Below, piece by piece: positions 1 through 16,997 of a DNA stretch of 32,000 nt. Positions within the stretch are counted from its first letter, which is position 1. Every line of letters begins with the position of its first letter. The notes beneath the pieces are model-generated. The model was not told where the DNA came from. It saw only the letters and a program-made list of their open reading frames with translations, and ran no database searches. The translations under genes were made by a program, and so were the position numbers. The stretch is from Deinococcus radiodurans R1 = ATCC 13939 = DSM 20539 (GTDB taxonomy: Bacteria; Deinococcota; Deinococci; Deinococcales; Deinococcaceae). The DNA lies in assembly GCF_000008565.1 (NCBI RefSeq), contig NC_001264.1, forward strand, positions 288,347 to 320,346. Direction: 5' to 3'.

Positions 1-239
1 TGCACGACCAGAAAAAACAGCAGCAGCCCCAGCGCAGGCCGCAGTTGCGCCCAGGTGGTGCGCCACCCCAGACGCGCGACGGCGTAGAGCGCCAGCGTCA
101 GCCCCAGCAGCGCCAGCAGGGGACGCCAGTCATGCAGCATAAACACCAGCACGCCGCACAGCAGCAGCCCCAGCAGCTTGACGCCCGGCGCGGCGCGGTG
201 CAGCGGCGAGTCGCGGGGGACATAAAGACCCAGCGTCAT
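1..239 (-). CDS. ECF/cobalt-type transporter transmembrane T component (CbiQ/EcfT-like), N-terminal part only; gene runs off the left edge
   Basis: Absent from the ORF track because it leaves the window. My translation of the minus strand from the ATG at 239-237 gives MTLGLYVPRDSPLHRAAPGVKLLGLLLCGVLVFMLHDWRPLLALLGLTLALYAVARLGW... It is hydrophobic with a CbiQ-like N-terminus. It begins 19 nt after the stop (259) of the ATPase fragment upstream. Confidence 0.55.
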   Translation of the reverse strand, partial: MTLGLYVPRDSPLHRAAPGVKLLGLLLCGVLVFMLHDWRPLLALLGLTLALYAVARLGWRTTWAQLRPALGLLLFFLVV

Positions 240-258
240 GCGGCTTCCGGTGAGCGGT

Positions 259-624
259 TCAGGGCCACGTCATCCGCTCCCGGTAGACCCGCAGCGCCTC
301 GGCGGGCGGCGCGTCGGCGATGAGTTCTCCGGCCTCGAACACCAGCACCCGCTCGAAGTCGCGCAGCAAGTCCAGGTCGTGCGTCACCACAATCGCCGTC
401 TGCGGCAACTCGCGGATGGCCGCCGCCACCCGGTTGCGGTTGCGCAGGTCGAGCAAGGTGGTCGGCTCGTCGAACACGACGTACTCGGGCCGCATCACCA
501 GCACGCCCGAAATGGCGAGCAGTTGCTTTTGCCCCCCGCTGAGCAGGTGCGAGGGGTGCTGACGGTATTCCCCCAGGTCGTAGCGTTCCAGCACCTCACC
601 GATGCGGGCTTCCACCTCGGCAGG
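259..624 (-). CDS. ABC/ECF-type ATPase, C-terminal ~120 aa only; the 5' half is missing at the vector junction
   Basis: ORF 259..615 contains the signature LSGGQKQ, Walker B VVFDEPT and H-loop VTHD. There is no Walker A/Q-loop half. The reading frame continues straight into the polylinker at 626. Confidence 0.8.
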
Positions 625-625
625 C

Positions 626-659
626 GGGGATCCTCTAGAGTCGACCTGCAGGCATGCAA
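626..659. other. pUC18/19 (M13mp18/19)-type multiple-cloning-site fragment: SmaI half-site, BamHI, XbaI, SalI, PstI, SphI
   Basis: Read directly: GGGGATCCTCTAGAGTCGACCTGCAGGCATGCAA. Five abutting 6-bp sites occur in the exact polylinker order: GGATCC 628-633, TCTAGA 634-639, GTCGAC 640-645, CTGCAG 646-651, GCATGC 652-657. Confidence 0.9.
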
Positions 660-2245
<1,586 letters not shown>

Positions 2246-2397
2246 GCTGCCGGGGAGGGCGACGGCACCTCACCGCCTGCCGCACCGCACCTGCCGCGCC
2301 GCGCCTGTCACTCTCCCCCCGCCGCTCACCCACGGTCGGTTGTTCGGGACTATGTAATTTATTTCTCTAATGGCTGCTCAGCCTCTACACTTGCACT

Positions 2398-3762
2398 GTG
2401 TCCATTCAATCATTTGAGGAAAAATCGGTCCCCATGACGGTGGACCGCGTGCTGGACGACCTGGGCCTGGGCCGCTTCCAGTGGAAGCTGCTCGCCATCT
2501 GTGGGCTGACCTGGGCCGCCGACGCGATGGAGGTGCTCCTGATGGGCTTCGCGCTGCCCGGCATCAGTGCGGCGTTCGAGTTGCCCAAAGGCTCGCCCGC
2601 CGCGACGATGCTGCTCACCGCGACTTTTGCGGGGATGCTGTTCGGGGCGTGGTTCTGGGGGTATCTGGCCGACCGGGTGGGCCGGCGCAGCGTGTTTCTG
2701 ACGACGGTGGCGCTCGGCGTGGTCTTCGGGCTGGCGGGGGCCCTAGCGCCGACGCTGACGTGGCTACTCGTCGCCCGCTTTCTAACGGGCTTCGCCATCG
2801 GTGGGACGCTACCGGTGGACTACTCGATGATGGCCGAGTTCGTGCCGACAGCGTGGCGCGGGCGGTTTCTGGTGTATCTGGAAAGTTTCTGGGCGGTGGG
2901 CACGGTGGTCGTCGCCGCGCTCGCGTGGTGGGTCAGTACCGCTTTTGCCCCCGCCGAGGGCTGGCGCTGGCTGCTGGGGCTGGCCGCGCTGCCGGGGCTG
3001 GTCGGCCTGATTGCCCGCATCGGCATTCCCGATTCGCCGCGCTCGTTGCTGGCGCGGGGCGAAGAAGCGCAGGCCCGCGCCGCGCTGCAAAAAGTCGCGC
3101 AGGCCAACGGGGGCACGCTGCCCGCCGCGCCGCTCGCGCACCCGGAGCAGCCGCCGCGCGTGTCGCCCGCCCAGCTTTTCCGGGGCGTCCTCGCCCGGCG
3201 CACGCCGCTGCTGATGGTGACGTGGTTTGGGCTGAGCCTGGGCTACTACGGCATTTTCTCGTGGCTGCCGAGCTTTCTGCGGGCGCAGGGGCTGGACCTC
3301 GGCGCGGTGTACCGCAGCACGCTGCTGCTCGCGCTCGCGCAGGTGCCGGGGTATCTGCTCGCCGCTTACCTGGTGGAAAAGATTGGGCGGCGGGTCACGT
3401 TGGTCGGCTTTCTGACGCTCGGCGCGGTGGGGGCGTACCTGTTCCTGCTCGCCCACGACGCGAACACGGTGCTGCTGACCTCGGCCCTGCTCTCTTTCGC
3501 GCTGCTTGGCGCCTGGGGGTCGCTGTACGCCTACACGCCCGAGCTGTTTCCCACCCCGCTGCGGACCACCGGCATGGGACTGGTCAGCGGGGTGGCCCGG
3601 CTCGCCAGCGTGGTGTCGCCGAGCATCGGGGCCATGCTGCTCACCGGCAACCTGACGCTCGCGCTGACCGTGTTCGCCGTGTGCTTCGCGCTCGCAGCGC
3701 TGGCGGCGTGGGGCATCGGGGTGGAAACGCGGGGGCAGGCGCTGGCGGAAACGGCAGAGTAA
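2398..3762 (+). CDS. niaP: MFS transporter of the SVOP/NiaP-like family, probable niacin transporter
   Basis: The 454-aa ORF has about 12 hydrophobic segments and MFS motif A ([10 protein letters not shown]). The N-terminus [30 protein letters not shown] is typical of SVOP/NiaP-type MFS proteins. It lies directly upstream of pncB and nadM. ATG at 2434 is an alternative start. Confidence 0.7.
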
Positions 3763-3776
3763 TGCAAGTCCAACCG

Positions 3777-3992
3777 TCTAAAGCATTTGACAGAATGATC
3801 TGGTCTGTCTTTGACCCTCTCCCTTGATGGGACTCAGAGAGCCGCTTGCGGAGAGGGCCTTGCGAAAGCTTGGGGTGAGGGTGTCTTTTTCTGGCAAATG
3901 CGCTAAAGGCCAAAGACCCCACATGCCACAGCATTTCGCGGTCAGACGGTCAAACAGTTAGCCCGTTTGACACCTCTCCCCCTCCCCAAAGG
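3777..3992 (+). repeat. Small noncoding repeat, MITE-like, copy A (Deinococcus SNR-type)
   Basis: Terminal inverted repeats GCATTTGACAG (3783-3793) and CTGGCAAATGC (3891-3901). Internal inverted repeat CCCTCTCC (3815-3822) and GGAGAGGG (3850-3857). The 22-nt stretch 3872-3893 recurs exactly, reverse-complemented, at 23212-23233. A second module at 3965-3992 is related to 23143-23180. Confidence 0.75.
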
Positions 3993-3998
3993 AACACC

Positions 3999-5423
3999 AT
4001 GACTGACCTCTCCCCCCTTCTGACCGACCTCTACCAGCTCACCATGATGCAGGGCTATTTTCTCAGCGACCTGCACCGGCAGCAGGCGACGTTTGACCTG
4101 TATTTCCGCCGCCTGCCCTTCGAGGGCGGCTACGCGGTGTGGGCCGGGCTGGAGCCGATGCTCGACTGGCTTCAGGGCTTGCACTTCGCCGAGGCCGACC
4201 TCGACTACCTCGCCTCGCTGGGGCAGTTCCGGCCCGAGTTTCTGGCGGCGCTGCGCGAGTGGCGCTTTTCCTGCGAGGTGACGGCGTTTCCCGAAGGCAG
4301 CGTGGTCTTTCCGCACGAGCCGCTGCTGACGGTGCGCGGGCCGCTGTGGGAAGCGCAACTGGTGGAAACGGCGCTGCTCAACACCCTGAATTTTCAGACG
4401 CTGGTGGCGACCAAGGCGGCGCGCTGCGTGCTGGCGGCGCAGGCGGGCGGCGGCACGGTCCTCGAATTCGGGGCGCGGCGGGCGCAGGGGCCGAACGGGG
4501 CCGTCAGCGCGGCGCGGGCGGCCTTCGTGGGCGGCGCAGTGGGCACGAGCAATCTGGAAGCGGGGCGGCAGTTCGGGATTCCAGTGTCGGGGACGCACGC
4601 GCACGCCTGGGTGGAGAGTTTTCCGACTGAACTCGACGCCTTTCGCGCCTACGCCGAGTTTTACCCCGACTCCACCACGCTGCTGCTCGACACGGTGGAC
4701 ACCCTCGGCAGCGGCCTGCCCAACGCGCTGACGGTGGCCGCCGAACTGCGGGCGAAGGGCCATGAACTGGGCGGCGTGCGCGTGGACTCAGGCGACCTCG
4801 CCTACCTCTCGCGGGTCATCCGGGAGCGGCTGGACGCGGCGGGCTTTCCCGACGTGAAAATCGTGGTGAGCAACGACCTGTCCGAATCGGTCATCTCCGG
4901 CGTGATTGCCGAGGGGGGCCGGGTGGACGTGTACGGCGTGGGGACGCAACTCGCCACGGCGGGGGGCCCCGGCGGCGGAGCGCTCGGCGGCGTGTACAAG
5001 CTGGCCGAACTGAATGGGCGGCCCCGCATGAAGCTGACCGGCGACCCCGCCAAGTCGAGCCTGCCCGGCACCAAAGCCGTGTGGCGCGGGTTAGATCATG
5101 ATCACTTCGCCTGGGACGTGCTGACGCTGGGAGACGCTCCACATGAGGGCCTGCGCGTCAGCGACCCCACCAACCCGCTGCGCTCGGCCCGGCTCACCTC
5201 GCGCCTGCACTGGCGTCCGGCCCGCGACCTCGTGATGAGCGGCGGCCAGCGCACCCGCCCTGCTGAGGCGCTGCCCGCGCTGCAAGCCCGCGCCCGCGAG
5301 GAACTTGCGCGCCTCGCCCCCGAAACGCGCCGTCTGCTTAACCCGCACGTCTACCGCGTGAGCCTTGCCCCCGAAGTCTCGGAATTGCGCGACCGGCTGG
5401 CGCAGGAACTGCGGGGCCACTGA
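3999..5423 (+). CDS. pncB: nicotinate phosphoribosyltransferase
   Basis: 474-aa ORF with an N-terminus [15 protein letters not shown] typical of NAPRTase. Context with niaP and nadM. SD AAGGA lies 5 nt upstream of the ATG. Confidence 0.9.
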
Positions 5424-5425
5424 CC

Positions 5426-6397
5426 TTGCCGCAGCCGTCCACGCTCAGCGGGGCCGTCTACGTCGGGCGATTTCAGCCGCCGCACGCCGCGCATGTCGCC
5501 AGTGTGCTCGCCGCGCTGGAGGCCGCGCCGCGCGTGCTGGTCCTGCTCGGCAGCGCCAATCTGGCCCGCAGCGTGAAAAATCCGTTCACGCCTGCCGAAC
5601 GCGAAGTGATGTTCCGGGCCGCGCTGACGGACGCAGGGGCTGACCTGCGCCGCGTCACCTTTCGCCCGCTGCCGGACCGTTTCGACGCCGACCTGTGGGC
5701 CGCCGACGTGCGGGCGGTAGCGGCGGAGATCTTTGGCCCCGGCGCGAGCGTCGGTCTGGTCGGCTTTGAAAAGGACGCGAGTTCGAGTTATCTGCGTTGG
5801 TTTCCCGGCTGGCAGCGGGTCAACGTGCCGGAAACGCCGGGCCTGAACGCGACGGATATCCGCACGGCGCTGTTTGAGGGCGCCCCGCTGCCTGCTGGCC
5901 TGCCGCGCCCGGTGTCGGGGGCGCTGGGCCGTTTTGCCCATACGCCCACCTGCGCCCGCTTGCGGCGGGAATGGACCGCCGTGGGACAGGAACGCGCCGC
6001 GTTGCCCCCCGGCACCGTCTTGCAAGAGGAACGCTGGCTGCACGTCATGGACAGGCGGGTGTGGCTCGCTCACCGGCCCGGTCCCATCGGCCAGGGCTTG
6101 TGGGAATTGCCGGGGCGGGTGCTGCCGCCCGGCGAAGTGCTGCCGCCCGGCGAAGTGCTGCCGCCCGGCGAAGTGCCCCTCCCCGGAGACGCCACGTTCG
6201 ACCACCCCGCGCGGACGCTGGTGACACGGACAGTGGCGCAGATACGGCTGGGTGCCCCTCCCGCCGGTTTTCAGGTGGTGCCCGTTTGCCTTGAAGTCGC
6301 CCTCTCCCGTCCCCGCCTGTTCCACGAGGACCACAGCGTCATTCTGGCGCGGCTGACGGGCCACGAACAGACCAACCAAGAAAAGCCCCCGGCCTGA
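5426..6397 (+). CDS. nadM: NadM-type nicotinamide-nucleotide adenylyltransferase fused to a degenerate Nudix (ADP-ribose pyrophosphatase-like) domain
   Basis: N-terminus [15 protein letters not shown] matches the GRFQPxHxGH nucleotidyltransferase motif of NadM. The C-terminal half keeps Nudix-fold flanks ([25 protein letters not shown]) but has no REx2EE box. TTG start 2 nt after the pncB stop. Confidence 0.7.
6119..6190 (+). repeat. In-frame 18-bp tandem repeat GTGCTGCCGCCCGGCGAA x3 (perfect) plus one degenerate unit, encoding (VLPPGE)3-VPLPGD
   Basis: Read directly: units at 6119-6136, 6137-6154 and 6155-6172, and a degenerate unit at 6173-6190. Confidence 0.95.
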
Positions 6398-6412
6398 GCA
6401 CCGGGGGTTTTT
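6386..6412. terminator. Bidirectional rho-independent terminator between convergent nadM and the amine oxidase gene
   Basis: Stem CCCCCGG (6386-6392) / CCGGGGG (6401-6407) with an 8-nt loop, flanked by AAAA on the left and TTTTTCTT on the right. The nadM TGA stop (6395-6397) lies in the loop. Confidence 0.7.
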
Positions 6413-6451
6413 CTTAGCGTTGTGCGGCGGCTTTAGGCCTGTCCTGTCTGC

Positions 6452-8032
6452 TCAGGCCTGACTGCTCGCGAACTTGTGCATTTCCTGCACGGCGGTGGTG
6501 GCCGCGAGCAGGGCGCCTTCCTGCCAGCCGTTCCAGTAGGAGGTGTGCTCGCCGGCCAGCATCATGCGGCCATGACGGGCGCAGAGGGTAGGGTAGTAGC
6601 GCTCGCGGGTGTCGGCGTTGTACAGGCCGTAGCAGCCGAGAGTCCAGGGCACGCGGTGCCAGCCCACGGTCACGCCGTTGTCGAACTCCTTGGCGGCGGC
6701 GGGGTGCAGCTGCGCGTTGTACTCCACGACTTTCTTCAGGCGCTCTTCGGGCGACATGCCGCTCATGACCACCGCGTCGGTGCCGAACATGTAGGCGCCG
6801 AGGACCACGCCCTTGCCGGTCGAGAAGTAGTTGTTCGAGGGGTAGGAGATGAGCTGGTTGGGCAGGTCGGTGTACGAGATGCCGCCGTAGATGTCATCGT
6901 CCTGTTCCCAGAAACGGCGCTTGTACTGCACGCCCGCCTTGAAGCTCGAGGCGTAGGGCACCTTCTTGATGGCTTCGGCGAGGTCCTTGTCCACGCCGGT
7001 CAGCTTGATCTGGCTGAGGATCGAGAGCGGAATGGTGCAGATGCAGTAGTCGCCGCTCGCGGTCTTGGTGGTGCCGTCGGCGTCCACGTAGGTCGCGGTG
7101 ACCTTGTCGGTGTCCTGCTTGATTTCGGTCACGCGGGCGCGGTACTTGATGAAGCGGCCCACCCGGCTCTCGAAGGCGCGGGCCATGGCATCCATGCCGC
7201 CGACCGGCTCGAACATGGTGCTGCGGAACTCGTACCACATACCCTGGTTCAGGTCGCTCCAGAGCCGGCGCTCAAGCAGCGTGTCGAGGCCGATCGGCTG
7301 CGAGGGCGTGCCGGGTTCGAGGCGGGCACCGGGGTCGCGGTCATAGCCACGGAATGTGCTCGTTTCGAGGCTCTTGACGTAGCGCCCGTCCTTGTTGAGA
7401 AAACCCCATTCGTGCAGCGCTTCGAGCAGTTTTTCCTTGTCCTCGGTGGTCAGGCCGGTGTCGAGGTTGCCCTGGCTGGCGGCCTTGTTCAGCAGTTCGG
7501 CCACGTGCCCCTGCATGTCGGTGCGCGCCTCGGCCTGCCGCACCCGCGTGGGTTGCTGACCATTTTTCCCCTCGCGGTGGATGTAGGCGTTCCAGTTTTC
7601 CATGATGAACGGTTCGAGCTTGACCCCGAACTCGCGGGCGTAGTGGAGGTAAGCGTGATGGTGGCAGGGAATGCGCCAGGGGCCGGGGTTGATGTACAGG
7701 CCCCGGTCGAACTCGCAGGTCTGCTTGAAGCCGCCGAGCTCGGTGTATTCGTCGCCGCCGCGAATGGTCCAGCAGCGGCCCCCGGCGCGCCCGTTGAATT
7801 CGAGAATCTGCACGTCGTAGCCGGCCTTCTGCATTTCGTAGGCGCTCGCCATGCCGGCTAAGCCCCCGCCCAGAATCAGCACGCTCTTGCCCTTGCCGCC
7901 GCCGGTAAGTTGCGGCTTGGTGTAGGTCGAGGACGCGGCGAGGCCCATCGTGTTCATCATCTGGTAGGCGGCGGCGGCCCCACCGACCATGCCGACCATC
8001 CCCAGGAAATTTCTGCGGCTCATTTCACTCAT
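6452..8032 (-). CDS. Tat-exported FAD-dependent amine oxidase-family flavoprotein (L-amino-acid/monoamine oxidase-like)
   Basis: 526-aa ORF. Twin-arginine signal MSEMSRRNFLGMVGMVGGAAAAY. Dinucleotide-binding VLILGGGLAGMASAYEMQKAGYDVQILEFNGRAGGR typical of flavin amine oxidases. Confidence 0.85.
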   Translation of the reverse strand: MSEMSRRNFLGMVGMVGGAAAAYQMMNTMGLAASSTYTKPQLTGGGKGKSVLILGGGLAGMASAYEMQKAGYDVQILEFNGRAGGRCWTIRGGDEYTELGGFKQTCEFDRGLYINPGPWRIPCHHHAYLHYAREFGVKLEPFIMENWNAYIHREGKNGQQPTRVRQAEARTDMQGHVAELLNKAASQGNLDTGLTTEDKEKLLEALHEWGFLNKDGRYVKSLETSTFRGYDRDPGARLEPGTPSQPIGLDTLLERRLWSDLNQGMWYEFRSTMFEPVGGMDAMARAFESRVGRFIKYRARVTEIKQDTDKVTATYVDADGTTKTASGDYCICTIPLSILSQIKLTGVDKDLAEAIKKVPYASSFKAGVQYKRRFWEQDDDIYGGISYTDLPNQLISYPSNNYFSTGKGVVLGAYMFGTDAVVMSGMSPEERLKKVVEYNAQLHPAAAKEFDNGVTVGWHRVPWTLGCYGLYNADTRERYYPTLCARHGRMMLAGEHTSYWNGWQEGALLAATTAVQEMHKFASSQA

Positions 8033-8083
8033 GCTTGTTCCTGCCTTTGTCTCTGGTGGCGTTCGCTGTGGCGGCGCGGCGCA

Positions 8084-8836
8084 TCAGCCCGCGTCTTCCC
8101 CGAAGGTCATTTCTCTCTCGACCGGCGGACGAATCTGCTTGAGGTCTTCGGGCTTGACCTGGTCCTGATTGTTGTTCAGCTCGGTGCGGACATAGTTGAC
8201 GATTTTGGCCGCCTGCTCGTCGCTGAGGTAGTGGGCAAAGCCGGGCATCCCGCCGTTGCCGTTCAGAACCATGCTTTCCACATAGGGCGCACTGGCGAGC
8301 TTGGCGTTGCCGGCGAGCGCGGGGTAGTTGTAGACACCGCCGCCGCCGTTGGCACCCTTGCCGCCGGGCATGTGGCAGCTCTGGCAGACTTCGACGTACA
8401 GCTCGGCGCCGGTTTGGCCGGTGAAAAAGTCGTAGGTGCGCCCCTTGACCGGGTCCGCCGCCTGGGTCGTGCCGTGCGCGGGGTCTTCGGGAGCAGCGTT
8501 TTGACCGTTGGCGTTCTGCCCATTCTGGCCCTGGGCTTCCTGGCCCGTGGTGCCAAGGCCACCAGCGGCGTTTGTCTGAGCGGTTTGATTCTGCCCCGAC
8601 TGGTTCTGGGCCGTCTGGTCCGTCGACTGAGTACCCTGGGTGGACTGGCTGGATTGAGTGGTCTGGGTGCTGGTGTTCTGGCTCGTCTGGGTCATGACCT
8701 GCCCGTTTTGCGCGGCGGTGTTGCGCTTGACCGCCGGGTTGAACAGCAGCAGGAAAATGACCCCGAGAATGACACCCAGCGCGAGGCTGAGCAGCAGGGT
8801 CGGGACGAGCGAAAAATTCCTGGGAGATGAGGACAT
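8084..8836 (-). CDS. Membrane-anchored class I c-type cytochrome with a long Q/T/S/N-rich tether
   Basis: ATG at 8836 is preceded by AGGAGG (8841-8846). The N-terminal TM segment is [24 protein letters not shown] ~90-aa low-complexity linker follows. The C-terminal domain has heme motif CQSCH and distal-Met motif NGNGGMPGF. The ORF track start at 8896 is probably too far upstream. Confidence 0.85.
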
Positions 8837-8965
8837 AGGGCCTCCTGGTGAGAAACGAAACTCCCTGTCGACAGATGCCGCAGGGAGAAAGGACACGCTG
8901 TGACCGAGTTATACGCTCTTTGTCACATTTTTCCGCTTAATAGAACGCTCAGGTTGACGCCGCGC

Positions 8966-10687
<1,722 letters not shown>

Positions 10688-10705
10688 GGGGTCTTCTCCT
10701 GGGGG

Positions 10706-10750
10706 CAAAAAGCAGGGGACCGGGAAGGCAAGCGCGTCTTCCCCGTCCCC
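10706..10750 (-). terminator. Strong rho-independent terminator between aceB and the malic enzyme gene
   Basis: Minus-strand reading: GGGGACGGGGAAGA - CGCGCTTG - CCTTCCCGGTCCCC followed by TGCTTTTT. It forms 12 bp (one mismatch inside the helix, one unpaired pair at the loop end). It starts 15 nt after the aceB stop, and the T-tract ends about 5 nt before the malic enzyme SD. Confidence 0.7.
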
Positions 10751-10765
10751 CTCACGTCAGCACAT

Positions 10766-12331
<1,566 letters not shown>

Positions 12332-12486
12332 GGGGTTCTCCTGGGAAGAGAGGCGAAAGCCGAAGAGCAGTCCTTGCAGTTTTTCACTGGATGAACTTTG
12401 ATTTCATTTTACAGCAAATGAGGCCGGCTGTTCCCGCATGTCCAGAGAACACAGACGGTAACGCGCTCTCTTTGGTTTGCCTCCTT

Positions 12487-12517
12487 GCCCCCGACGCCGC
12501 CGGGCGGGGGCTGTTTT
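12487..12517 (+). terminator. Orphan terminator-like hairpin in the aceB / lipoprotein intergenic region
   Basis: Stem GCCCCCG (12487-12493) / CGGGGGC (12505-12511) with an 11-nt loop, followed by TGTTTTG. No plus-strand gene lies upstream of it. Confidence 0.4.
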
Positions 12518-12677
12518 GCACCGACTCCAAAATTTAGAGTGTCTCCTCAGAAAGTGGACGCACAATGGGTCAAGACTCCTCCTCTTTTGCTTCTGCGCTC
12601 CGGCCGCCGCTCGCGGCTCTTGCCTTTCTTTGCCGCCTGTCACCTTTCCCCTTGCCCAGTTCTCCCGAGGTTCCGCT

Positions 12678-12863
12678 ATGACCCCCTCTACTCTGTCCAA
12701 ACGTCTGTTGCCCGCTCTGGCCCTTGCTCTGTTGGTGGTGTTGCCCGGCTGTTCCCAGTCTGCGCCGCAGGCCCCCGACAAGGCGATTTTCATCCCGCAG
12801 GAAGCACAGACGACGGCCCCCACACTGACGCCTCTCACGACGCCGCAGGACACCGAGCCGTGA
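12678..12863 (+). CDS. Small putative lipoprotein (61 aa)
   Basis: Internal ATG of ORF 12477..12863 with GAGG 7 nt upstream. Product: MTPSTLSKRLLPALALALLVVLPGCSQSAP... It has a positively charged n-region, a hydrophobic core and a lipobox-like LPGC, then a Pro/Thr/Gln-rich tail. No family recognised. Confidence 0.5.
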   Translation: MTPSTLSKRLLPALALALLVVLPGCSQSAPQAPDKAIFIPQEAQTTAPTLTPLTTPQDTEP

Positions 12864-13009
12864 CGGCGCGCCGCCTGACCTAAGCGTTAGGGTTTTTGTC
12901 CCGCTTTTGCCAGATGGGCGGCCTTTATCCCAACATCATTTGCTCCTTCCCCTGCCCTGACCCGGCGGGGATTTTTCTTTCCCCAGAGAAAAATGAGAAA
13001 AACTCATCA

Positions 13010-13052
13010 AACTTACCTTCCGGTCGGTAACATATTGACCGAGCGGTAAGTT
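13010..13052. promoter_or_regulatory. 43-bp imperfect palindrome (candidate operator or 5'-UTR hairpin) upstream of the ABC exporter
   Basis: AACTTACC (13010-17) ttc CGGTC (13021-25) ggtaacatatt GACCG (13037-41) agc GGTAAGTT (13045-52). Outer and inner arms share one dyad axis at 13031. It ends 50 nt before the ATG at 13103. Confidence 0.4.
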
Positions 13053-13102
13053 CGTCTTACCCGGATCACTTTTCTTCCCCTCTCTCGTTCAAGGAGTCGT
13101 TT

Positions 13103-14164
13103 ATGTACCTTGCTCTGCGCGAACTGCAACATCAGAAATTGCGTTCCCTGCTGATCGGCGGCATCGTCGCCCTCATCGCTTTTATGGTCTTTATGCTTAC
13201 TGGCCTGACGCGCGGCCTCTCGCGGGACAGCGCCTCGCTGCTGCTCGACACGCCCGCGCAGTCTTTCGTGACCACCAAGGAAGCCGACGGCGTGCTCAAC
13301 CGGTCTTTCCTGAGCCCGGAACAGGTCAGCGCCCTGCAACAAGACAACGAAGACGCGGCGGCCTTCGCCCAGACCTTCGTGAGCTTCAGCCACGGCGATA
13401 AACAGCTCAGCGGCGTGCTGCTCGGCGTGGACCCGCGCGGCTTTCTGGCGCCGGACGTAAGCGAAGGCCAGACCCTACGCGTGGCAGGCGGCGCGGTGGT
13501 GGACGAATCGCTGCGCGAAGACGGCGTGAAGGTCGGCGACGTACTGACCCTCAAGCCCAGCGGCGACCAACTGCGCGTGAGCGGCTTTACCCGCAGTGCC
13601 CGCCTAAACCACCAGCCCGGCATGTACGTGTCGCTGGCGCGCTGGCAAAAGCTCAACCCCCGTATGCACGGCACCGTGAACGCCGTGGCTCTGCCCGCCG
13701 CACCGGCTCAGGTCAACCTCGGCGGCGCCGACTTGAGCGTGACCAACCGCGCCCAGACGCTGCAAGTGCTTCCCGGCTACAAGGAAGAGCAGGGCAGCCT
13801 GACCATGATTCAGGTGTTCCTGATCGCCGTGGCGGCGTTCGTGCTGGCGACCTTCTTCTACGTGATGACGCTGCAAAAGACCGCGCAGTTCGGTCTGCTC
13901 AAGGCCATCGGCGCGAGCAACCGCACCCTCGCCGGCAGCGTGGTCGCCCAGATGCTGATTCTGACGCTGCTCGCCGTGGCCATCGCCGCCGCCGTCACCC
14001 TGGGCATGGTGCAACTGCTGCCCGCCGGGATGCCCTTCCACCTCACCGCCGCCAACATTGCCTCCGCCTCCGGCCTGCTGCTGGTCGTCGCCGCCCTGGC
14101 GAGCCTGCTGAGCGTGCGCCGCGTCGCCAAGGTAGACCCGCTGATTGCCCTCGGCGCAGCTTGA
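13103..14164 (+). CDS. MacB/FtsX-type 4-TM ABC permease, HrtB-like (heme-efflux-type)
   Basis: 353-aa ORF. SD AAGGAG upstream. TM1, then a large extracytoplasmic domain, then 3 TMs. Motifs MYLALRELQHQKLRS, FFYVMTLQKTAQFGLLKAIGASNR, MPFHLTAANI and KVDPLIALGAA resemble HrtB as I remember it. Confidence 0.85.
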   Translation: MYLALRELQHQKLRSLLIGGIVALIAFMVFMLTGLTRGLSRDSASLLLDTPAQSFVTTKEADGVLNRSFLSPEQVSALQQDNEDAAAFAQTFVSFSHGDKQLSGVLLGVDPRGFLAPDVSEGQTLRVAGGAVVDESLREDGVKVGDVLTLKPSGDQLRVSGFTRSARLNHQPGMYVSLARWQKLNPRMHGTVNAVALPAAPAQVNLGGADLSVTNRAQTLQVLPGYKEEQGSLTMIQVFLIAVAAFVLATFFYVMTLQKTAQFGLLKAIGASNRTLAGSVVAQMLILTLLAVAIAAAVTLGMVQLLPAGMPFHLTAANIASASGLLLVVAALASLLSVRRVAKVDPLIALGAA

Positions 14165-14233
14165 GCCCCTCCCCCTGAGGCTCTGCCCCGCCTGCGCCCC
14201 CTGCCCTAGCCCCCTCTCCTACAGGAGTTCCCC

Positions 14234-14976
14234 ATGACTGCCATCCAGATGCCGGCCCCCCGTCCCGTTCCCCTGACCCCCGCTGCCGTGGCCGCGCCGC
14301 TCGCGGAGCCCACCCTGGCGGTGCGTCACGTGTCCAAGGTCTACCGCGACGGCGACACCGAGATCACGGCGCTGCACTCCACCACCTTCGAGGTGCGCCC
14401 CGGCGAACTGGTGGCGGTCAACGGCCCGAGCGGCAGCGGCAAGAGCACCCTGCTCTCCATTGCGGGGGCGCTGCTGCGGCCCACCACCGGGCAGGTCTTG
14501 ATTGCCGGGCAGGACGTGACGCGGCTGAGCGAGCGCGAACTGCCTGCTTTCCGGCTCCAGCACATCGGCTTTGTACTCCAGAGCAGCAACCTGATTCCGT
14601 ACCTCACGGTGCGCGAGCAGCTCACGCTGGTGCCCCGGCTCGCCCACGCCGACATGCGGCAGGCCGCCGCGCAGGCCGACGACCTGTGCGCGTTCTGGGC
14701 CTCGAAGCCCGTGCTGGGCACTATCCCGATGCCCTGAGCGGGGGCCAGAAGCAACGCGTCGCCATCGCCCGCGCCCTGATGAACAACCCCGGCCTGATTC
14801 TGGCCGACGAACCCACCGCCAGCCTCGACGGCGCCCGGGGCCGCGAAGTGGTGCAGATGCTCGCCGATGAGGTGCGGACCCATCAGAAGGCCGGCGTGAT
14901 GGTCACCCACGACGAGCGCGTGCTCGACCTGTGTGACCGGGTGGTGACTATGGTGGACGGGCAACTGCGCGGCTGA
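14234..14976 (+). pseudogene. ABC transporter ATP-binding protein (HrtA/MacB/LolD-like) interrupted by one frameshift near 14686
   Basis: ORF 14234..14737 carries Walker A GPSGSGKST. ORF 14686..14976 (frame +2) carries [15 protein letters not shown], Walker B ILADEPT and VTHD. Adding one base after GACGACCTG gives ..[28 protein letters not shown].., a normal linker. Confidence 0.85.
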
Positions 14977-14999
14977 CCCATAGAGCGAGTTCGCCTGTG

Positions 15000-15150: not shown

Positions 15151-16997
15151 ATGAAATTCAACCGTCCTCTTTCTCTGGCTCTGCTCTCAGGTGCGCTGCT
15201 GCTGGCGTCCTGCGGCAACACTCCGGCGGGTGGAACCACCCCCGGTGGTACGAACACGGGTGACACCACCAACACCGGCGGCATCAAAGTCAACCCGATC
15301 ACCGGCACGGGCAATGCGACCCTCTCGGCTGATGTGGTGCGCTCCAACCGTGGCGCGGCGGTCGAAGGCAGCACCGTGTACCTGTACCGCACTGGGGACC
15401 GCAGCGCGCTGTCGGCAAGGCCAGCACCAACGCCCAGGGCTACGTCGAGTTCGCCAAGATTCCGGCGGGCAGCTACGACCTGGTGTTCATGAAGAGCAAG
15501 GCCGCCGGCTCCGAATTCGACGGCGCGGTGGCGAAGGACAACGTCAACACACGGCTGAAGATCGCGCAGTTCATGTCCGCCGATCCCAACGCTACGGCGG
15601 ACGTGCCGCAGCTCAAGCTCGAAACGCCCACGGCTTTCAAGGCGAACGGCGAAGTGGATACCTGGGGTCCGCTGGGCAGTGGAACCGCGTTCAACGACGT
15701 GGTGAACGTGCGCGCCTACAGCGTGAAGAACAGCGACCAGCCGCGCGTGATGCGCTACTTCCTGTTCTCGCTGGTCAACATCGACAAGGACGGCACCTGG
15801 TCCGACGTGCGCCCGGCGGCGGGCCTGTACGAGCAGGACCCCGGTTACGTGACCCCCGGCGTGGACCCCAACAACAAGGGCCAGGGTCAGGACAGCGGGC
15901 TGGTCAGCCTCGACGCCACCGGCCTCGAAGGCGACGTGTACCTGCAAGTGGTGGGTCTAGATTTCAACTACAACCGCGTGGCTTACCTCGTGCCCCTCAA
16001 GCTCAACCGCACCAAGGCGGCTTCGGAAGTCGTGGCGCCGACCAACGTGCGTGCCATCGCCTACACGCTCAGCACCCGCATCGACTACCTCTACAAGACT
16101 CAGGACCCGGTGCTCGACGCGCCGACCAGCGGCACCAACCTGTGGGTGACGACCTCCTGGGATGCCCCCGTCACCCTGAGCGGTTACCGCGGCTTCCGCG
16201 TGCTGCGCTCGACCAAGGCTGAGGGCCCCTACAGCCAGGTGGCGTTCGCGGGTGAAGCCCAGTGCGCCAAACCCGCCGACGCCAAGGCCACCACCCGCCG
16301 CTGCACGGTGAGCGACAACACCGCCAGCCTGATCACCGACCAGGACTACTTCTACAAGGTCGTGGCAGCGGGCACCAACGAGGCGACCAGCGACGTGGCC
16401 CCGACCCACACCCTGCCCATCTTCCAGCCCAAGCTGCTCTCGCCGGGCAAGGACGTGCACGACGTCGATCTGACGCCCAACTACACCGTCAAGCTCAATC
16501 TGTTCCAGACCGGCGCGACCGGCGCGGTGATGAACCTGCGGGTGGCCGACTTTATTACTGGCGAAAGCTATGCGTATGCGGCCAAGCGCCTGACGGTTCG
16601 CAAGGAACTGGGCGAAACCCAGATCCTGAGCAACCTGCAAGGCACGAGCAACTACTACGTGTTCCGCGACTCCTACGCCACCGACAACGACCCCAAGACC
16701 AACAACGACACCGTGACCTACGACGCGGCGAGCGACGTCCTGACCGTGCCGCACCAGTTCGAGGTCGATTACCTCGGCGGCAACAAGGTGCCGCTGCAAG
16801 CCAACCGCCGCTACAGCTGGTACATCGACTCCGGCTACGCCTACCGCCTCGCCGACCCCAGCAAGCCCACGACGGCGGCCAACAACTACATCGCGGCCTA
16901 CTCGGTCTACAGCGACCCCTCCGACACCGTGCGTGTGGTGCCTGGCGGCGTCAAGCAGGGCGGAGCCGAGGTCAACGATTTCACCACCCGTCAGTAA
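15151..16997 (+). pseudogene. Large secreted lipoprotein (carboxypeptidase-regulatory-like domain plus Fn3-like domain) split by one frameshift near 15405-15416
   Basis: ORF 15151..15492 starts MKFNRPLSLALLSGALLLASCGN (lipobox LASC). ORF 15483..16997 is in frame +2. A single beta-sandwich domain spans the break: ..AAVEGSTVYLYRTGDRSA / GKASTNAQGYVEFAKIPAGSYDLVFMKS.. Confidence 0.75.

Follow-up and report, generated by a model that had tools for sequence, protein, structure and literature searches.

Among the closest described counterparts of the locus reported here are the vector (UniVec-type) contaminations and chimeric misassemblies of the Sanger era. The locus lies near the left end of a 32,000-nt stretch of the Deinococcus radiodurans R1 chromosome II record (NC_001264.1, positions 288,347 to 320,346 of the forward strand), referred to here as the window. 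It has in common with such contaminations a synthetic polylinker, starting at a blunt cloning site, that joins two unrelated genomic places; the join occurs in one old assembly only and is absent from independent ones, and base-call errors cluster at the joint. Unlike the usual contaminant, this one lies inside a chromosome recorded as finished and 'complete', comes with a 600-bp duplication, has given rise to three gene models, one of them a reviewed Swiss-Prot entry, and has been taken for an evolutionary deletion in published work.

Natural transformation occurs in D. radiodurans, where duplication insertion is in routine use as a genetic tool. The locus resembles a Campbell-type duplication insertion of an E. 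coli plasmid in D. radiodurans in that foreign DNA lies between 600-bp direct target repeats, with a pUC-type polylinker at one edge. It differs in that the block carries neither vector backbone nor replicon nor resistance marker, the 'insert' measures only 917 bp and consists of polylinker and chromosome I DNA, and the record is that of the wild type. The flanking gene fragments resemble the natural bioYMN ECF biotin transporter and adenine deaminase (ADE, EC 3.5.4.2) genes, being at least 99.8% identical to intact copies from the same species, but BioM lacks residues 1–104, and adenine deaminase lacks residues 519–558 and ends in six vector-encoded residues.

The features at the left end of the window are as follows.

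1–239, minus strand: 5′ part of bioN (CbiQ-family ECF T component), a displaced chromosome I copy that runs off the left end of the window; 99.8% identity to positions 4094–4332 of L008, a Logan contig carrying the natural locus; weak Pfam CbiQ match.
259–627, minus strand: 3′ fragment of bioM (ECF biotin transporter ATPase), residues 105–226 of the natural 226-aa protein; identity to L008 up to base 627.
625–659, plus strand: pUC18/19/M13mp18-19 polylinker remnant (SmaI half-site, BamHI, XbaI, SalI, PstI, SphI and the first two bases of HindIII); exact 35-nt match.
635–2245, minus strand: chimeric adenine deaminase ORF (DR_A0270; Swiss-Prot Q9RYP0, 536 aa), with the last six codons and the stop codon encoded by vector.
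660–1254, no strand assigned: right-hand copy of a duplicated adenine deaminase segment of about 600 bp (289,001–289,600 in PMC11219805, equal to window 655–1254; the 600-bp repeat of Table 4 in PMC11276467); collinearity with modern assemblies begins here.
718–719, no strand assigned: base-order error, CG for GC, giving Q497H and P498A in adenine deaminase, 59–60 nt from the vector joint.

The preliminary description of this DNA, made from its letters, had read the interval as BamHI, XbaI, SalI, PstI and SphI sites in pUC order, from the GGG half of SmaI to two bases of HindIII, and this is borne out by the exact match at 625–659. On the plus strand these positions read CGGGGATCCTCTAGAGTCGACCTGCAGGCATGCAA, which occurs once in the window and is identical to the pUC18/19/M13mp18-19 polylinker at 35/35 positions, with 0 mismatches. 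In 100 dinucleotide-preserving shuffles of the window there was no match to this string even at 3 or fewer mismatches (0 expected by chance), and a natural origin of the 35-mer is ruled out by the exact match and this zero expectation. The proposed check against vector polylinkers gave the same answer: BLAST against PLSDB (72,556 plasmid records) found the 35-mer in many vector-derived plasmid records, with matches that include whole EcoRI-to-HindIII pUC polylinkers (alignments: NC_019074.1, NC_012886.1 and OM136003.1). A transposon end as the source of the polylinker was considered and rejected; the 37-nt matches in 'uncultured bacterium' plasmids and in pRAx (transposon/vector cassettes) continue with GCTTCAGGGTTGAGATGTGTATAAGAGACAG, and the window does not. 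A separate observation concerns HM037272.1, a 109-kb plasmid of B. thuringiensis CT-43, in which 14 separate places match the polylinker-containing query; evidently, polylinker remnants also sit in other public 'natural' records.

The insert/vector joint lies at the blunt cut of SmaI (CCC/GGG), with identity to chromosome I ending at 625–627 and vector sequence (GGGGATCC) running from 626. Because natural bioM continues with GG, this joint is ambiguous by 2–3 nt; bases 625–627 (CGG) are common to natural bioM, and 628–659 (32 nt) are unambiguously foreign. At the other end, the polylinker match stops after the AA of HindIII, and no continuation of vector past HindIII or EcoRI (lacZ-alpha, primer sites) was found. 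A scan of the 32-kb window with about 280 nt of pUC19 MCS flanks gave no other vector 11-mers apart from one chance 11-mer at 13800. The right joint, GCATGCAA followed directly by CCCAGC, does not fall at a restriction site. Left of the polylinker, genuine bioM sequence at 610–624 (TTCCACCTCGGCAGG) matches the left half of the vector polylinker (TTCGAGCTCGGTACC) at 10/15 positions and in register, a match with a background frequency of 1.3e-3 per window position. This likeness may be due to chance, or similarity may have helped the joint to form or to be accepted.

The left flank derives from chromosome I. Window 1–627 is identical to L008 at 626/627 positions, and the gene order of the natural locus in that contig is CarD, acetyl-CoA synthetase, bioY, bioM and bioN, onward to RNase Y. 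Positions 288,083–288,973 of chromosome 2 have been reported as identical to 2,463,286–2,464,176 of chromosome 1 (PMC11219805), and the replicon of the left flank is assigned from these coordinates and the gene context of L008. Across the breakpoint, natural bioM reads GGCAGGCGG followed by CAATTTCAGG, and the window instead goes on with GGATCC. The ORF at 259–615 (minus strand) is DR_A0269, with a 118-aa product (AAF12526.1/WP_010889528.1/Q9RYP1). An ABC ATPase without its Walker A half had been claimed for this strand, and rightly: the fragment at 259–624 spans only positions 82–137 of the 137 in the Pfam ABC_tran profile, and the Walker A motif of natural BioM (GSNGSGKS, residues 33–40) lies within the 104 residues (1–104) absent from the window. 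A complete nucleotide-binding domain (Walker A, signature motif and Walker B) was not found in the BioM fragment. The fragment duplicates part of chromosome I bioM, whose natural locus on that chromosome is intact. As a side observation, L008 has C4 at its position 3763 (window 570), where the window has C5, and bioM of L008 is split into calls of 147 and 78 aa; the frame of the window at 570 gives an intact 226-aa BioM.

On the right, the 536-aa product of 635–2245 (minus strand) is AAF12490.1, the same as Swiss-Prot Q9RYP0 (ADEC_DEIRA), and a 524-aa variant is WP_234944700.1. Residues 1–518 of adenine deaminase are kept, and the last 40 codons (519–558) are replaced by MPAGRL and the TAG of XbaI, in agreement with the suggestion that the C-terminus is lost and that the end of the protein and its stop codon come from vector. 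The natural gene reads GGCAAGGTGCAG followed by CCCAGCAAG at the breakpoint. The Adenine_deam_C match ends at profile position 135/169 in the window product, compared with 167/169 in the intact 558-aa protein, and the combination of Amidohydro_1 with a complete Adenine_deam_C domain was not found in the window adenine deaminase. The warning that both genes are wrongly annotated from this sequence is justified: DR_A0269 (Q9RYP1) and DR_A0270 (Q9RYP0, WP_234944700.1) are artefactual products and, set against the full-length forms (intact BioM, 226 aa; adenine deaminase, 558/570 aa), neither ends naturally at the joint.

The vector sequence bridges two unrelated gene fragments, as had been stated, and the flanks come from different replicons. 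The latter point bears on the suggestion that the polylinker is the scar of an engineered deletion that removed the DNA between bioM and adenine deaminase. The position of the polylinker beside two truncated genes is what such a scar would look like, but the two genes lie on different replicons, both missing halves are elsewhere in the same genome record (PMC11219805, PMC11276467), and the record, that of the wild-type reference, has no marker, lox or FRT site and no vector backbone here. Nothing has been deleted, and the probability of a deletion scar is close to nil.

The window is collinear (99.95%) from 655/660 to at least 15421 with L001–L004, four further chromosome II sequences of D. 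radiodurans, and the right flank sits on chromosome II contigs of about 412 kb. All four are uninterrupted here. Three of them have adenine deaminase called at 558/570 aa, with an FmdE-family gene and an AAA ATPase gene after it; the L003 call is cut to 492 aa by a single-base difference at window 1111. No ABC gene lies within 6.5 kb of adenine deaminase in any of the four. The bioM/polylinker/adenine deaminase join is absent from every later assembly examined. The chimeric products (118, 536 and 524 aa) were each found on one contig only, the 412,348-bp chromosome II of TIGR from 1999, and the intact 558-aa adenine deaminase on 107 contigs (NCBI, JGI, ENA, Logan). The junction string had 0 matches in the GTDB species-representative genomes, a weak result since a control string of natural bioM across the breakpoint also gave 0. 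The sequenced strain, BAA-816, has itself been resequenced in no published study, and needs resequencing (PMC11219805); absence of the join from the culture actually sequenced is judged from other R1-lineage assemblies.

Base-call differences are concentrated at the start of the right-hand copy. Positions 718–719 and the vector base 659 are the sole differences from L001, L002 and L004 in 655–3362, and from L001 and L002 in 655–14320; additional single-base differences are those of L003 at 1111 and of L004 at 3363. Three of the five substitutions across 14.7 kb fall 65 nt or less from the joint (659, 718 and 719), and relative to L001 and L002 there are none over the next 13.6 kb, until 14321. 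The right copy thus opens with a short error-prone stretch, which fits the start of a single low-quality Sanger read.

Several other oddities of the record were seen in the window. At 14687, within a gene at 14234–14977 (plus strand), one base is missing compared with L001, L002, L003 and L006 (CCTGTGCGCG in place of CCTGCTGCGCG), and this ABC transporter ATPase gene, which encodes 247 aa elsewhere, is frameshifted. Two bases are also substituted, at 14321 (L30V) and 14548, and the following gene lacks a G at 15408. All four differences probably reflect additional base-calling mistakes in the 1999 record, of a kind typical of it. The intergenic region 3763–3998 holds a short repeat, of which 3850–3905 is 89% identical to 23254–23200, inverted. 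The short-read contigs L005 and L006 break at 3812–3815, and the continuation of L005 into chromosome I genes (PEPCK, pdhA) suggests a dispersed small repeat or a rearranged strain. A 1,164-aa ORF at 8900–12394 (plus strand), antisense to the malic enzyme and malate synthase genes, was rejected as a gene, being a typical spurious long ORF in DNA of 67% G+C.

The structure to the left of the window was taken from two papers that compare the 1999 TIGR chromosome II of D. radiodurans R1, now ATCC BAA-816 (AE001825.1; PMC11276467), with other strains; what was established directly is the identity of the vector, where each flank comes from, that the join is absent elsewhere and that base-call differences cluster beside it. 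From the coordinates in PMC11219805, in which 288,973 closes the chromosome I match (window 627) and 289,001 opens the repeat (window 655), window base 1 falls at 288,347. As a cross-check, DR_A0269, at 524–880 of a block starting at 288,082 (PMC11276467, Table 4), falls at window 259–615, in agreement. By the coordinates of PMC11276467, the start of DR_A0268 falls on a GTG at window 64–66, which is out of frame with adenine deaminase over the 1,051-nt span that follows from the published coordinates; six reconstructed candidate sequences for DR_A0268 had 0 exact matches on look-up. Table 4 of the same paper lists the event as a 917-bp unique block between 600-bp repeats, and PMC11219805 (Section 2.4) describes 287,484–288,083 as nearly identical to 289,001–289,600, with three bases differing. 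The three are window 659 (vector A for genomic G) and 718/719 (CG for GC); they sit in the right copy, and therefore the left copy is the correct one.

It had been proposed that genomic sequence is missing at the polylinker. This was not upheld. Adenine deaminase has its true 3′ end outside the window, some 1.5 kb to the left, in the 600-bp duplicate inside DR_A0268 (PMC11219805, PMC11276467), and the extra DNA derived from the papers (600 + 891 bp; PMC11219805, Section 2.4; PMC11276467, Table 4) adds up to about 1.49 kb. The assembly lacks nothing; instead, about 1.5 kb is spurious.

The two 2024 papers take the 1.5-kb block as genuine in BAA-816, a chromosome I segment having moved to chromosome II with a 600-bp duplication, and hold that homologous recombination between the two 600-bp repeats removed it from the ATCC 13939 lineages. 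The flanking 600-bp direct repeats would permit such a deletion (PMC11219805, Section 2.4 and Figure 3; PMC11276467, Table 4). Against this, both papers leave the 27 bases between 288,973 and 289,001 unaccounted for, and these are the core of the polylinker: the 32–35 nt between the end of the chromosome I block and the start of the repeat are an exact synthetic sequence that cannot be natural Deinococcus DNA. Neither paper invokes vector (the word occurs 0 times in PMC11276467 and once, in an unrelated sense, in PMC11219805), and PMC11276467 itself warns that events 2–4 of its Table 4 may be misassemblies. A natural block in BAA-816 is hardly credible, and if the DNA of that strain truly holds it, the block would still be of laboratory origin.

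Taken together, the polylinker join is very likely an artefact of the 1999 TIGR shotgun assembly of chromosome II of D. radiodurans R1 (BAA-816) and not a feature of the organism. This is the explanation that the preliminary description had thought simplest, an untrimmed vector read or chimeric join in a Sanger assembly, and it is supported by the age of the record (TIGR, 1999), the absence of the join from all later assemblies compared and the derivation of the two flanks from different replicons.

As to mechanism, we infer, with somewhat more confidence than doubt, that one chimeric clone was responsible and that its ends were joined in the way set out here. Two fragments would have been co-ligated into the SmaI site of a pUC-type vector, a 600-bp fragment of chromosome II adenine deaminase and an 891-bp bioN-bioM fragment of chromosome I, giving an insert of about 1.49 kb (600 + 891 = 1,491 bp). 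An insert of about 1.49 kb is a typical small-insert size in TIGR practice. With p1 and p2 as the ends of the 600-bp fragment, the clone would read ...CCC / p1-p2 / bioN-bioM / GGGGATCC..., and the read from the HindIII side would have retained 34–35 nt of polylinker that vector trimming missed. During assembly or gap closure, the two ends of the clone may then have been assigned to contig ends that faced each other and been butted together. In effect, the circular clone, minus its backbone, would have been 'unrolled' into the consensus as adenine deaminase 3′ part...p2 / bioN-bioM / polylinker / p1...adenine deaminase 5′ part. The predicted left joint is adenine deaminase ...CCCAGTAT / TTCTCGATACC... 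bioN. Unrolling of this kind would duplicate the 600 bp (p1-p2) and yield the three false gene models DR_A0268, DR_A0269 and the truncated DR_A0270. Two observations count against the clone model: the likeness of bioM to the left polylinker half, because plain blunt ligation does not predict a 10/15 match, and a right joint that lies away from any restriction site.

The same arrangement could also be produced in the cell. If a pUC clone with the 600-bp adenine deaminase segment and the bioNM fragment had integrated into chromosome II of the sequenced culture by a single crossover of the Campbell type, and its 2.7-kb backbone had been stripped by vector screening, the outcome would be the repeat-insert-repeat layout of 600/917/600 bp (PMC11276467, Table 4; PMC11219805, Section 2.4), and the end of the polylinker does coincide with the expected start of the vector backbone. 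The 'wild-type' reference BAA-816 would in that case be a recombinant that had gone unnoticed, its vector backbone having simply dropped out of the assembly at vector screening. Such an integration, however, requires that a pre-existing chimeric pUC clone of Deinococcus DNA entered a wild-type stock with no selectable marker and became fixed, and that the assembly pipeline silently closed a 2.7-kb hole. No backbone k-mer is left in the window, which has no vector backbone or marker and only 32–35 nt of polylinker, and the joint occurs in no other R1-lineage assembly or read-derived contig. A library clone explains the locus with none of these extra steps, and integration in the sequenced culture is very improbable, although less so than a deletion scar or a natural block.

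The preferred reading, a cloning artefact of the shotgun assembly, has consequences for the databases. About 1.5 kb of AE001825.1/NC_001264.1, a reference that remains in wide use, is spurious (roughly 288,083–289,600). The gene models corrupted by it are DR_A0268, DR_A0269/Q9RYP1 and DR_A0270, and the proteins Q9RYP0 (ADEC_DEIRA) and WP_234944700.1 end in six vector-encoded residues and are without the last 40 residues of the enzyme. Nothing relevant came up in a literature search on D. radiodurans and vector contamination or UniVec. The block has been published already but read as biology, and the diagnosis of an artefact is apparently unreported. Two comparative-genomics papers of 2024 treat it as truly deleted, or as lost genes, in ATCC 13939 strains (PMC11219805, PMC11276467) and use it to illustrate recombination between long repeats in a species famed for accurate repair. 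Because a polylinker is present, this example should be dropped. The value of the finding lies in database curation; it brings no new biology and is of low biological interest.
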